Positions 61,496-64,000 of a stretch of 64,000 nt of DNA are shown here, piece by piece. Numbering within the stretch: position 1 is the stretch's first letter; each line of letters opens with the position of its first letter. The position numbers and the translations under genes are program-made. The notes under the pieces are model-generated. The model was given only the letters and a program-made list of their open reading frames with translations. It was not told the origin of the DNA and made no database searches. Origin of the DNA: an uncultured Thermococci archaeon (lineage in GTDB: Archaea; CAYQAE01; CAYVLA01); the NCBI GenBank assembly GCA_964549615.1, contig CAZJVP010000051.1, forward strand, positions 1-64,000, in the 5' to 3' direction.

Positions 61496-61528
61496 AAAAG
61501 TGGGTCTCGCCTTTTCCCCGTCGGTTGC

Positions 61529-62401
61529 TTAGGCTAGTGCTATCAATCCCACCCCGAGGGCCATGATCGCCGCCGCGATGAGCTTCAGGTTGGTTCTCTC
61601 CTCCCCCAATATCTCGAAGCCGAACAGGACCGCGAACATGATCGACGTCGAGCGAAGCGAGATGACGTATGAGACCTCGACCGTTCGCATGGCAAAGAGG
61701 ACCAAGAGATACGAGAAGATGCACAGGAAGCCCACCGCGATGGCTTGCCTCCAAGATTTCGACGCGCCCATCCGCATCCTCGCAAGTCCGTAGCGTCTGA
61801 GGAAGAGCGGTGAGAGGAGCAGGCCGCAGACCGTAAACGTCAGGTAGAGGTAGACCACGGGGTCGACCAGCGAAACGCCGACCTTGTCTATGGTCTGATA
61901 GAAGGATATGCAGAGACCCGTCGCGATCGCTGCTGCGGATGCGGGGCTTGCCAACCTGGCAGCCGTTTGCCCGAGAGACAGCCCGCCCTTGGCCGGTTGA
62001 TGGAAGAGATAGATGGATAGCATTGTGAGCAGAATTCCAGCCCAGCCGATGCTCGAGGGTCGCTCCCCAAGCAGCATGAGCGCCCAGGTCAGCGTGAGGA
62101 CAGGCGCCAGCCCCCTGGCCAGAGGGTAGGCGTGGGACAGATCACCCCGGGAGTAGCTCCTTCCAAGGAGCAAGAAGTAGAAGCAGTATACCGAGCCGGT
62201 GCCGAGGATGCACATCCATCCCTGCCAGGGGATATCCGTGCCGGGCGCGGTCAGGAGGAAGAGAGGAGTGTACAGCAGTATCGCAGCCCAGACATACAGA
62301 AATGAGAAGAGTGCTTTGTCTTCGGACTTCTTGAAAAGGAGGTTCCAGTAGGCATGGAGCAGGGCGGAGACCAAGACGAGGGCCACTGGGAATAGGATCG
62401 T
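61529..62401 (-). CDS. EamA/DMT family transporter (ACG start proposed)
   Basis: SALLHAYWN, GDLS.AYPLARG, GE motifs; about 10 TM. Confidence 0.88.
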   Translation of the reverse strand, partial: TILFPVALVLVSALLHAYWNLLFKKSEDKALFSFLYVWAAILLYTPLFLLTAPGTDIPWQGWMCILGTGSVYCFYFLLLGRSYSRGDLSHAYPLARGLAPVLTLTWALMLLGERPSSIGWAGILLTMLSIYLFHQPAKGGLSLGQTAARLASPASAAAIATGLCISFYQTIDKVGVSLVDPVVYLYLTFTVCGLLLSPLFLRRYGLARMRMGASKSWRQAIAVGFLCIFSYLLVLFAMRTVEVSYVISLRSTSIMFAVLFGFEILGEERTNLKLIAAAIMALGVGLIALA

Positions 62402-62591
62402 ACGATCACCGGCGGGTGCAGGTACGAGATACCCGGGGATATGAATCTCCTGTCGATCCCCATCGAGAACGCTGATATTCCAGAGCACAATCTCGAGTTG
62501 GGATCATGCGGTGGCGGGTTGATTTTGGTCCCAGTGTCAGGGGCGAGCGCTCACAAAGCTTTTTGAAAATCCGTCTCCAGTTGAGGTTCGC

Positions 62592-64000
62592 ATGTGGCGC
62601 GTCGAGGTCGCAGAGAACCCGGACTGGGGGTACGCCAGGAATCTCCAACTCGTCCTCAAGACGCATCTTGCGGAGTATTCGTCCTCCGTCTTTTCCGTCC
62701 CACTCGAGGCAGGCGGCCTGAGGTACTATGGCGGAAACAGGGACTATTCATGGCAGGGCTTGATCGTCGGTCCGATCGACGGCGTCCTATACAAGACGCT
62801 TGACGGGCTGTTCTACTCAACGGGGTCTCAGCTCGCGGCGAGGCATGTCTGGTACCAGCCCGGCGAGTTCTCGTACGGATATGAAGATCCGGCCGGACAG
62901 GCATTCGTGGTCAGGATCGCTTTGGATGACCTGCAGGGACGAATCTTTCTGAGGGCTGCGGCAAACAAGCCCTGCTGGTTCGCCGTCCCGCTGGATCTTA
63001 GGCCGGCGGAGAGGTGGACCGAGGCCAGCTACGCGGTCCGTTGGCTCGAAGGGAGCGTCGTGATCCAGAGCGACGCAGCGCCCGTTACGGTCACGATGCG
63101 AGGCTTCAGCGCAAGGCAGGACCTGAACATGTCCCTGAACTGGAGGTACAAACTCGGCGACGGGTTCAGGGAGATCAGGGACGGGCTCGTGGCCTTTTCT
63201 GAGCACCGACGGCCGATCCATCTGCCCTTTGCGCTCTACTGCCCAAATGGGCTTCTGGAGGTTCAGGTTGACGCTGAACCGCGCCTGCCGACAAACCTTC
63301 CTCGGGCGGAAAGTCGCGCTGCGGTTCGCCTGGGAACCGGCAGGGTGGCCCAGGCCTTACGGTTGCGCATCGAGAACCTTGGCACCTTCGGAATCCCCGT
63401 CGCCGGAACATGGTTTCCCGAGGCCGGAGCCTGGTGGTTCAGGAAGCCGTGGATCAGGGACGCGATCGAGGGGCTGAGATGGAACATCAGGACCTACGTA
63501 GAGATCCTCGGGCGCTCTGGCCCCGTGGGTTCGCTGGTGCTCGGGCTGCTGGACCTGCTCGAATCCCGCGGGGGGCTTCCCATCATATACGGCGAGGGGG
63601 GATGCTTTTCAAGCGATGCGCCGCCGCTCCTTCTGACCGTTGCTTGTGAACTGGCCCGTCTAGGTCAAAGCCGGAACCTTGCGCTGAGGGCCGTTGACGT
63701 GGCGCGACATGTCTGCGAAAATCTTCTTGCTGGCAAATCCGTCTCAGGTTCGGTCTTGGCAGACTCCGTCATCTGCTGCCCGGCGAGTTCATCTTGGCTC
63801 GATTCCGTCATCTCTCTGGGCGGCATTAGATGGCCCACCAGGATTCCGCGATCTTGGGCCGCAGAGGGCCTTGATCCGCGCTCAAGCGAGTTCGGGTTGG
63901 TCGAGGTCAATGCCCTCTACATCGAGTCGCTTGGCAGGGTGCTCGAGTGCGCGGCGGAGATGGGCCTCGGTGTGTCGGCCGTACTGGAGCAGGTGGCCGG
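62592..64000 (+). CDS. Glycogen debranching enzyme-like protein (amylo-alpha-1,6-glucosidase), truncated by window end
   Basis: Open frame from ATG 62592 (GAGGT RBS); EAGAWWFRKPWIRD, SSDAP, SSWLDS, VEVNALY motifs; absent from the ORF track. Confidence 0.72.
   Translation, partial: MWRVEVAENPDWGYARNLQLVLKTHLAEYSSSVFSVPLEAGGLRYYGGNRDYSWQGLIVGPIDGVLYKTLDGLFYSTGSQLAARHVWYQPGEFSYGYEDPAGQAFVVRIALDDLQGRIFLRAAANKPCWFAVPLDLRPAERWTEASYAVRWLEGSVVIQSDAAPVTVTMRGFSARQDLNMSLNWRYKLGDGFREIRDGLVAFSEHRRPIHLPFALYCPNGLLEVQVDAEPRLPTNLPRAESRAAVRLGTGRVAQALRLRIENLGTFGIPVAGTWFPEAGAWWFRKPWIRDAIEGLRWNIRTYVEILGRSGPVGSLVLGLLDLLESRGGLPIIYGEGGCFSSDAPPLLLTVACELARLGQSRNLALRAVDVARHVCENLLAGKSVSGSVLADSVICCPASSSWLDSVISLGGIRWPTRIPRSWAAEGLDPRSSEFGLVEVNALYIESLGRVLECAAEMGLGVSAVLEQVA

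Follow-up and report, generated by a model that had tools for sequence, protein, structure and literature searches.

The VP2 protein of adeno-associated virus and the C' protein of Sendai virus are examples of near-cognate translation initiation at ACG, and in plant chloroplasts and mitochondria genomic ACG codons become AUG start codons by C-to-U RNA editing. NCBI translation table 11 lists TTG, CTG, ATT, ATC, ATA, ATG and GTG as start codons and does not include ACG, and the infC gene of Escherichia coli starts at AUU. Here we describe an ACG codon which very likely is the start codon of a gene for a transporter of the EamA/DMT family, located in a 64,000-nucleotide (nt) stretch of DNA from an uncultured Thermococci archaeon (the window, G000:C51:1-64000, to which all positions refer unless another contig is given). 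The genome (G000) comprises 3.21 Mb in 104 contigs, and the runs holding the DNA of the window are hot-spring metagenomes. In the literature searched, at the level of abstracts and without supplements, no ACG start was reported for archaea, and the matches listed comprised only eukaryotic, viral, organellar and E. coli reporter work. According to the review literature, archaea permit GUG and UUG starts, the archaeal initiation factors aIF1 and aIF2 have eIF1 and eIF2 as their homologs, and in Sulfolobus AUU is rejected by aIF1 (PMC4705826), and an E. coli study describes weak activity of ACG reporters, with N-terminal Met and, in one culture, some Thr (10.1101/063800).

The ACG codon of the EamA gene

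Positions 62410-62390 of the minus strand read GGTGA TCGT ACG ATC CTA TTC, with GGTGA at 62410-62406 and TCGT at 62405-62402, so the GGTGA-TCGT-ACG motif (62410-62399) which an earlier note on this DNA had placed in frame with the transporter gene was found by direct reading (Table 1). The ACG differs from AUG by one base, at the middle position, and shares its frame with a 319-amino acid (aa) open reading frame (ORF) on the minus strand (61529-62488), which the ORF list begins at GTG 62488, and the product of which matches EamA (Pfam PF00892, E 3.2e-23, 82.9 bits versus a cut-off of 28.2) in two stretches. As ACG is outside the table 11 start set, the public gene call (P0001, 281 aa) begins instead at the TTG of codon +9, counting the codon after ACG as +1. 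Read from ACG the protein would begin M-ILFPVALVLVSALLHAYWN, and the extension read from the upstream GTG would include MLWNISVLDGDR. The 3' end of the 16S rRNA of this genome (contig C46) is ...GGATCACCTCCT, which makes GGTGATC a 7-nt complement. In this Shine-Dalgarno (SD) sequence GGTGA is 4 nt from ACG, a spacing which lies inside the genome-wide range of 4-6 nt and equals that of the ribosomal protein S2 and S8e genes (with S2-like and S8e-like N-termini), both of which carry the motifs used for comparison in the earlier note (GGTGATATCGTG from 11494 and GGTGATGCCGTG from 47389, both on the plus strand). Codon usage also changes at the ACG, with a score of -3.4 over the 30 codons upstream and +6.9 downstream.

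Local tblastn was run on 111 loci from the genomes of relatives, GTDB genomes and metagenome contigs, 85 of which had an N-terminal match, with one running off the locus end and 67 being distinct. Public homologs are mostly 285-293 aa long and start 15 residues before an invariant His (N-termini MILLPVLLVLTSAALH... and MPLAAVALVLASCGLH...), with the conserved family motif His-x-x-W-N near the N-terminus; a start at the window ACG likewise falls 15 residues before this His, which bears out the statement that it gives the N-terminal length usual for the family. The codon aligned with the window ACG is ATG in 42, GTG in 10, TTG in 2 and ACG in 7 of the distinct loci, the remainder being GCG (3), ATT, CCG and CTG (one each); of the four GCG or CCG rows, three have an ATG one codon upstream (L021, L078 and L023) and there is none in the L107 group. 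ACG at this codon is confined to the window together with its closest relatives, seven loci in all: L051 and L044 (80-81% identity to the window), L003 and L016 (62% and 57%), which are two paralogs in G001, a genus mate of G000, and L047 and L048 (56-57%). The next-closest loci, L004 from G003 (same family) and L049, have ATG at the aligned codon, 8 nt behind GGTGA.

Within the seven ACG loci there is no conserved in-frame canonical alternative start, the exception being L016 with an ATG at -2. In-frame stops precede the ACG in L047 (TAA at -1), L048 (TAA at -7) and L051 (TAG at -8), without any ATG, GTG or TTG between stop and ACG, and in L044 there is no canonical codon within 37 open codons upstream. 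The first downstream canonical codon is at +5, +13, +5, +7, +9, +9 and +5. When the codons from -6 to +20 are aligned (27 columns), no column apart from those of ACG and the Trp codon TGG at +18 is the same throughout the seven loci, and P+4, V+8, S+11, A+12 and A+16 are each encoded by 3-4 synonymous codons; beside such synonymous variation, one would not expect the nucleotides of an ordinary Thr codon or leader triplet to be frozen. No two of the loci share the 4-nt spacer preceding ACG, and GGTGA or GGTGG stands exactly 4 nt upstream of ACG in six of the seven, L016 being the exception. Conservation at the protein level extends over residues +1 to +8 (I, P, V), which match the MILLP... N-termini of ATG-started relatives. 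The public models of this clade have ragged lengths (277, 281, 282, 285, 298, 304 and 314 aa), as expected if the true start is outside the codon set of the gene callers.

The TATA-like TTCATAT pointed out in the earlier note does lie downstream of the GTG at 62488, and a ATTCATAT-like element is conserved in relatives, 44-54 nt before ACG and within the upstream extension. The A/T-rich sequence AGATTCATAT(T/C) is common to L001, L051 and L044, and counterparts occur at comparable places in L047 and L048 (ATTGATATA) and in L016 (TTCCATATT). If this element is a TATA box, the transcript would begin just before the SD sequence and would exclude the upstream GTG. By itself the motif is uninformative: GGTG[AG]NNNNACG has four matches in the window versus 4.24 expected by chance, and none of the remaining three is at a gene start, and therefore the case rests on homology and context. 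The earlier note had counted three ACG candidates, of which the EamA gene is confirmed and the other two are not identifiable in the window.

Three side observations concern the same region. The 12 nt of GATCGTACGATC at 62396-62407, made up of the 3' part of the SD sequence, ACG and the codon following it, form a perfect palindrome, which is lost in relatives (GATCATACGATC, GATCACACGATC) and therefore probably a coincidence. An 86-aa ORF with an ATG start (62406-62666, minus strand) has the TGA within GGTGA as its stop codon and overlaps a divergent plus-strand gene at the start of the latter (62592); it has no Pfam match and a codon-usage score of -20.8, and is most likely not a gene. Among distant EamA homologs on metagenome contigs (L050 and L088), one has ATT behind AAAGGAGGG at the family start and another has CTG directly after a stop.

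Unusual starts elsewhere in the genome and the initiation machinery

Besides the EamA gene, at least five further genes of G000 very probably begin translation at ACG (Table 1), as judged from alignments with orthologs and domain models. In TrkA, position 1 of the TrkA_N model corresponds to residue 3 counted from ACG, and the first canonical codon (+17) lies inside the Rossmann motif. The HMPTM radical SAM protein, with the predicted N-terminus M-TPTKSLCPTCLR, has an N-terminal zinc ribbon (model positions 4-45 of 45) from residue 3, which would be lost with a start at the first canonical codon (+52). All six ACG genes have an SD match of 7-10 nt, compared with a match of at least 7 nt in 2.6% of 1,189 genes with canonical starts, and codon +1 in the ACG genes other than EamA is TAC, ACC, AGT, AGA or CCC. 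ACG starts thus appear recurrent but rare, at an estimated 6-10 genes per genome or about 0.2-0.4% of genes: the near-cognate use described in the earlier note stands with these further genes, but "routine" overstated it, with about 6-10 cases among about 2,535 ORFs. The picture is one of ACG, with some CTG, ATT and ATA, being exchangeable with ATG, GTG and TTG at the start positions of this lineage.

A second HMPTM-like radical SAM paralog (L154 in G002 and L153 in G003) is without a canonical start before its CxxC ribbon, and has GGTGA-TGGTACC-ACG and GGGGA-TGGTCGT-ACG, respectively, four codons before the aligned position. A GH4 glycosidase considered as another ACG candidate (L130) has position 2 of the Pfam model at residue 4 counted from ACG, and its relatives are paralogs too diverged for start alignment.

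Raw counts of codons behind GGTGA, GGAGG or GGTG, filtered for ORF length only, reflected mainly internal and spurious frames and were of no use as a signal, and were therefore replaced by a crude codon-usage gene finder, which predicted 2,535 stop-to-stop ORFs in G000. In 1,189 genes the first canonical codon comes early, and these start with ATG (532), TTG (354) or GTG (303). A strict filter (SD match of at least 6 nt, first canonical start 8 or more codons further on, coding-like sequence downstream) gave ACG at 5 of 23 sites versus 2 of 223 non-coding-like controls (p 8.6e-5), with CTG at 5/23 versus 6/223 and all near-cognate codons together at 12/23 versus 25/223. Behind GGTGAT[CT]NN (1,054 sites), 18 sites are start-like: TTG 4/10, ATG 4/14, ACG 4/8, GTG 1/10 and five single codons. 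None of 15 ACC, ACA or ACT sites is start-like, and 5 of 1,012 sites with non-canonical codons other than ACG are (ACG versus these, p 2e-7).

Non-ATG starts are very common in G000, and the stop codons of its predicted ORFs are TAG (1,158), TGA (1,131) and TAA (188). The exact motif GGTGATYNNACG occurs 15 times in G001 versus 3 for the reversed control, with 6 versus 1 in G003, 4 versus 2 in G002 and 0 versus 1 in G004, and most of the sites in these four genomes are not start-like despite the excess in G001.

The initiator tRNA and aIF1, which the earlier note had named for inspection, were both found to be ordinary. The initiator tRNA, with the anticodon CAT, is encoded at C20:206743-206818 and shows A1:U72 and three G:C pairs, and the sole tRNA-Thr(CGT) found is an ordinary elongator. 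No initiator tRNA with anticodon CGU was seen among the tRNAs reported by aragorn, three of the 35 RF00005 matches having been drawn and read. The aIF1 gene (G000:C81:67940-68158, minus strand, L181) is present with an ATG start. Comparison of L181, L178, L177 and L176 gave IEFQGDH in the aIF1 of G000, G001 and G002, with IELQGD or IELQGx in G003 and 12 other archaea; as G003 has ACG starts without IEFQGDH, the latter is not required. Termination-reinitiation was considered as a general mechanism and rejected: only TrkA and HMPTM closely follow a gene on the same strand, and EamA, the zinc-ribbon protein, AglB and the secreted protein (4/6) follow divergent genes.

The gene for aIF2 gamma (G000:C88:86061-86063, minus strand, L131) was rejected as a further ACG start, as the element conserved in its relatives is an ATA or ATC one codon upstream. 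With the orthologs L169 (G001), L170 (G003), L171 (G002) and L172 (G004) compared, the start seems to be ATA in G000, G002 and G003, ATC in G001 and ATG in G004. The ATA or ATC stands 6 nt behind GG[AG]GG[GT], without a canonical codon between it and the upstream stop; the Met of MVGHVDHGKTT is the first canonical codon in G001 and in G002, and a start there would cut the conserved LPHVNVG. Candidate CTG starts were seen for an oligopeptide ABC ATPase, a protein which from its N-terminus we take to be MtrH-like, and a signal-peptide protein, and a candidate ATT start for an ABC-2 permease. These sites (G000:C97, L160:195-1175, minus strand; C100:13016, plus strand; C48, L161:401-862, minus strand; C99, L162:401-1216, minus strand) have strong SD sequences and coding-like sequence before the first canonical codon.

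Table 1. Features of the EamA locus in the window, and other G000 genes with a predicted ACG start
Feature	Location	Strand	Remarks
ACG, proposed EamA initiation codon	62399..62401	-	aligned with ATG, GTG or TTG in 54/67 distinct loci and with ACG in the 7 closest
Shine-Dalgarno sequence GGTGATC	62404..62410	-	4-nt spacer from GGTGA to ACG; 7-nt complement of 16S 3' end
EamA/DMT transporter coding sequence from ACG, 290 codons + TAA	61529..62401	-	PF00892; homologs mostly 285-293 aa
In-frame stretch from GTG (62488) to ACG, read as 5' untranslated or promoter DNA	62402..62488	-	codon usage; stops in relatives
TATA-like TTCATAT, 44 nt before ACG	62439..62445	-	putative promoter role
GTG at codon +5, nearest canonical alternative start	62384..62386	-	first downstream canonical codon not conserved
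TrkA	G000 C30:44197		GAGGTGAT-GTGA-ACG; in-frame TGA directly before ACG; orthologs ATG (G001), TTG (G002), GTG (G003), ATG (G004)
HMPTM radical SAM protein	G000 C45:19711		GGTGA-TCCG-ACG; ACG in G000-G003, ATG in G004
Zinc-ribbon/DUF4389 protein	G000 C19:31162		residue 2 corresponds to position 1 of the Zn_Ribbon_1 model; canonical codon at +33; ACG in G000-G003
Secreted protein	G000 C20:76839		GAGGTGATC-CT-ACG; ATT in G001 behind GAGGTGATC-AC; ATG in G002 and G003
AglB	G000 C43:3226		ACG at start position; ACG in G000-G002

Alternative explanations for the ACG codon

With a probability of about 0.78, we favour SD-anchored near-cognate initiation at ACG by the ordinary initiator Met-tRNA as the explanation of these data as a whole. 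The EamA gene would be translated from its ACG, with the GGTGATC on a short leader pairing with the 16S 3' end and thereby placing the ACG in the P site, and there the initiator Met-tRNA (anticodon CAU) would accept it as a near-cognate codon with a middle-base mismatch. The same initiation would take place at a small set of other genes in G000 and its family-level relatives, together with a few CTG, ATT and ATA or ATC starts. Underlying this explanation are the position and conservation of the ACG, the lack of a conserved canonical alternative, its recurrence at other genes, and an initiator tRNA and aIF1 which are both ordinary. Given a start at ACG, the near-cognate mechanism is quite likely; the strong SD sequence may be what allows Met-tRNAi to decode ACG, and the weak codon may set a low translation rate. 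The EamA ACG has been kept over about 40% protein divergence. One C-to-T transition is enough to turn ACG into ATG, and the persistence of ACG in both EamA and HMPTM across long divergence thus suggests selection for a weak start.

Three other start sites in the same frame have to be considered. A canonical start downstream, at the GTG of +5 or the TTG of +9, would make the ACG and SD-like motif merely part of the leader; these codons do exist and the gene caller chose the second of them, but the first canonical codon shifts from +5 to +13 among loci in which ACG and SD are fixed, residues +1 to +8 show protein-level conservation with synonymous variation and match the N-termini of ATG-started relatives, GGTGA would be 19 nt from the GTG, and the L051 protein would begin two residues before the invariant His, and hence we consider it unlikely. 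The Ile codon after ACG (ATC here, ATA in some relatives) would be a rare table 11 start 7 nt behind GGTGA, and is indeed present in all seven loci, with L004 and L049 having ATG 8 nt behind GGTGA; however, this would leave the invariance of the ACG unexplained while its 4-nt spacer varies freely, the other ACG genes have different codons at +1, and Ile +1 is kept in ATG-started homologs too and thus is under protein-level constraint, making such a start quite improbable. Initiation at GTG 62488, upstream of ACG, would lengthen the N-terminus by 29 residues and is more improbable still: the frame is open from there and the G001 copy is annotated with an upstream ATG (P0006, 304 aa), but the extension is not conserved, has a negative codon-usage score and contains the conserved TATA-like box, there is no canonical start upstream in L044, and the stops 1, 7 and 8 codons upstream in L047, L048 and L051 mean that homologs do not align through it, a check for which the earlier note had asked.

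Two further explanations concern the ACG itself. That it is a sequencing or assembly error for ATG, a concern of the earlier note given the GTAC context of the site, has a negligible probability and can be regarded as already refuted by the comparative sequence data: six other distinct related loci from other assemblies and metagenomes have the same ACG, the starts of other genes in four genomes are ACG as well, and an independent assembly (Logan contig) of run X1, possibly the source sample, shows 0 differences over 61500-63000 at a word depth of 38.7, with run X2 covering only 61847-62027 and 62113-62263 and not the ACG. Alternatively, genomic ACG could become AUG by C-to-U editing of the mRNA, with initiation itself being canonical. 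A single such change would make ACG canonical, as it would turn CUG into UUG, and an editing system could tolerate the retention of ACG over long divergence; however, editing cannot repair the ATT start of the secreted protein in G001 or the apparent ATA and ATC starts of aIF2 gamma in the same lineage, and we know of no mRNA editing system or machinery in archaea. Editing at the EamA gene is accordingly unlikely in our view, as is a so far undescribed archaeal C-to-U activity which would convert the ACG and CTG starts of the whole lineage into AUG and UUG.

Several points weigh against initiation at ACG as we favour it. The window has a canonical GTG five codons downstream and the public call is at TTG +9, the G001 paralog L016 carries an ATG two codons upstream of its ACG, and the zinc-ribbon and AglB genes of G001 and G002 contain a GTG in frame within the SD sequence, three codons before ACG. 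The association with strong SD sequences is partly circular, as candidates were ascertained through their SD. In the genome as a whole, ACG behind an SD match of at least 5 nt is only 1.65-fold enriched in 5' regions compared with gene interiors, versus 3.6-5.1-fold for the canonical codons and 2.2-fold for ACT, and therefore ACG is not a common start; the 25 sites of the exact motif GGTGATYNNACG in G001-G003 include one clear start (HMPTM) and one possible one (L192, without Pfam match). The gene finder is crude, as are the thresholds, which were chosen in the course of the analysis, and the genomes compared, being related, do not count as independent samples. Finally, judged from the DNA sequence alone, a truncated EamA protein is conceivable at this one locus.

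Consequences and comparison with known systems

The ACG start is supported as a case of near-cognate initiation with practical consequences for annotation. If ACG works as a start codon in archaea, table 11 and every gene caller that depends on it lead to wrong annotations for a group of genes that is small but systematic, with standard gene finders cutting or over-extending the proteins; the public models of this transporter clade would be at five different wrong starts, and TrkA, the radical SAM enzyme and the zinc-ribbon protein would lose their first domain if only canonical starts were allowed. It would also mean that the archaeal aIF1/aIF2 machinery, together with a strong SD sequence, tolerates a middle-base mismatch so far documented for eukaryotic scanning ribosomes. 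Should editing turn out to be responsible, it would be the first case outside organelles in which the start codon of an mRNA is edited.

Compared with its own protein family, the product of the EamA gene is an ordinary member, which contains two EamA repeats, is about 290 aa long and begins 15 residues before the His, and only the start codon differs. As in plant organelles a genomic ACG occupies a conserved start position, whereas the neighbouring ATT and ATA cases of this lineage are beyond C-to-U repair. The alternative starts of table 11 share with this system an SD-led mRNA with a near-cognate start, and G000 also uses TTG and GTG and has CTG, ATT and ATA candidates, but in ACG it is the middle base which is mismatched. 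The apparent AUA or AUC start of aIF2 gamma, the factor which binds the initiator tRNA, recalls the AUU start of bacterial infC, and feedback on start-codon stringency like that of infC is a testable idea. Closest are the ACG starts of eukaryotes and their viruses, in which a codon one base from AUG is likewise found at the start and presumably is read by Met-tRNAi. In contrast to these, placement of the ACG described here would be by a Shine-Dalgarno sequence rather than by scanning and Kozak context, and the codon would be the sole start of ordinary housekeeping and membrane genes, conserved across genera, instead of the start of an isoform.

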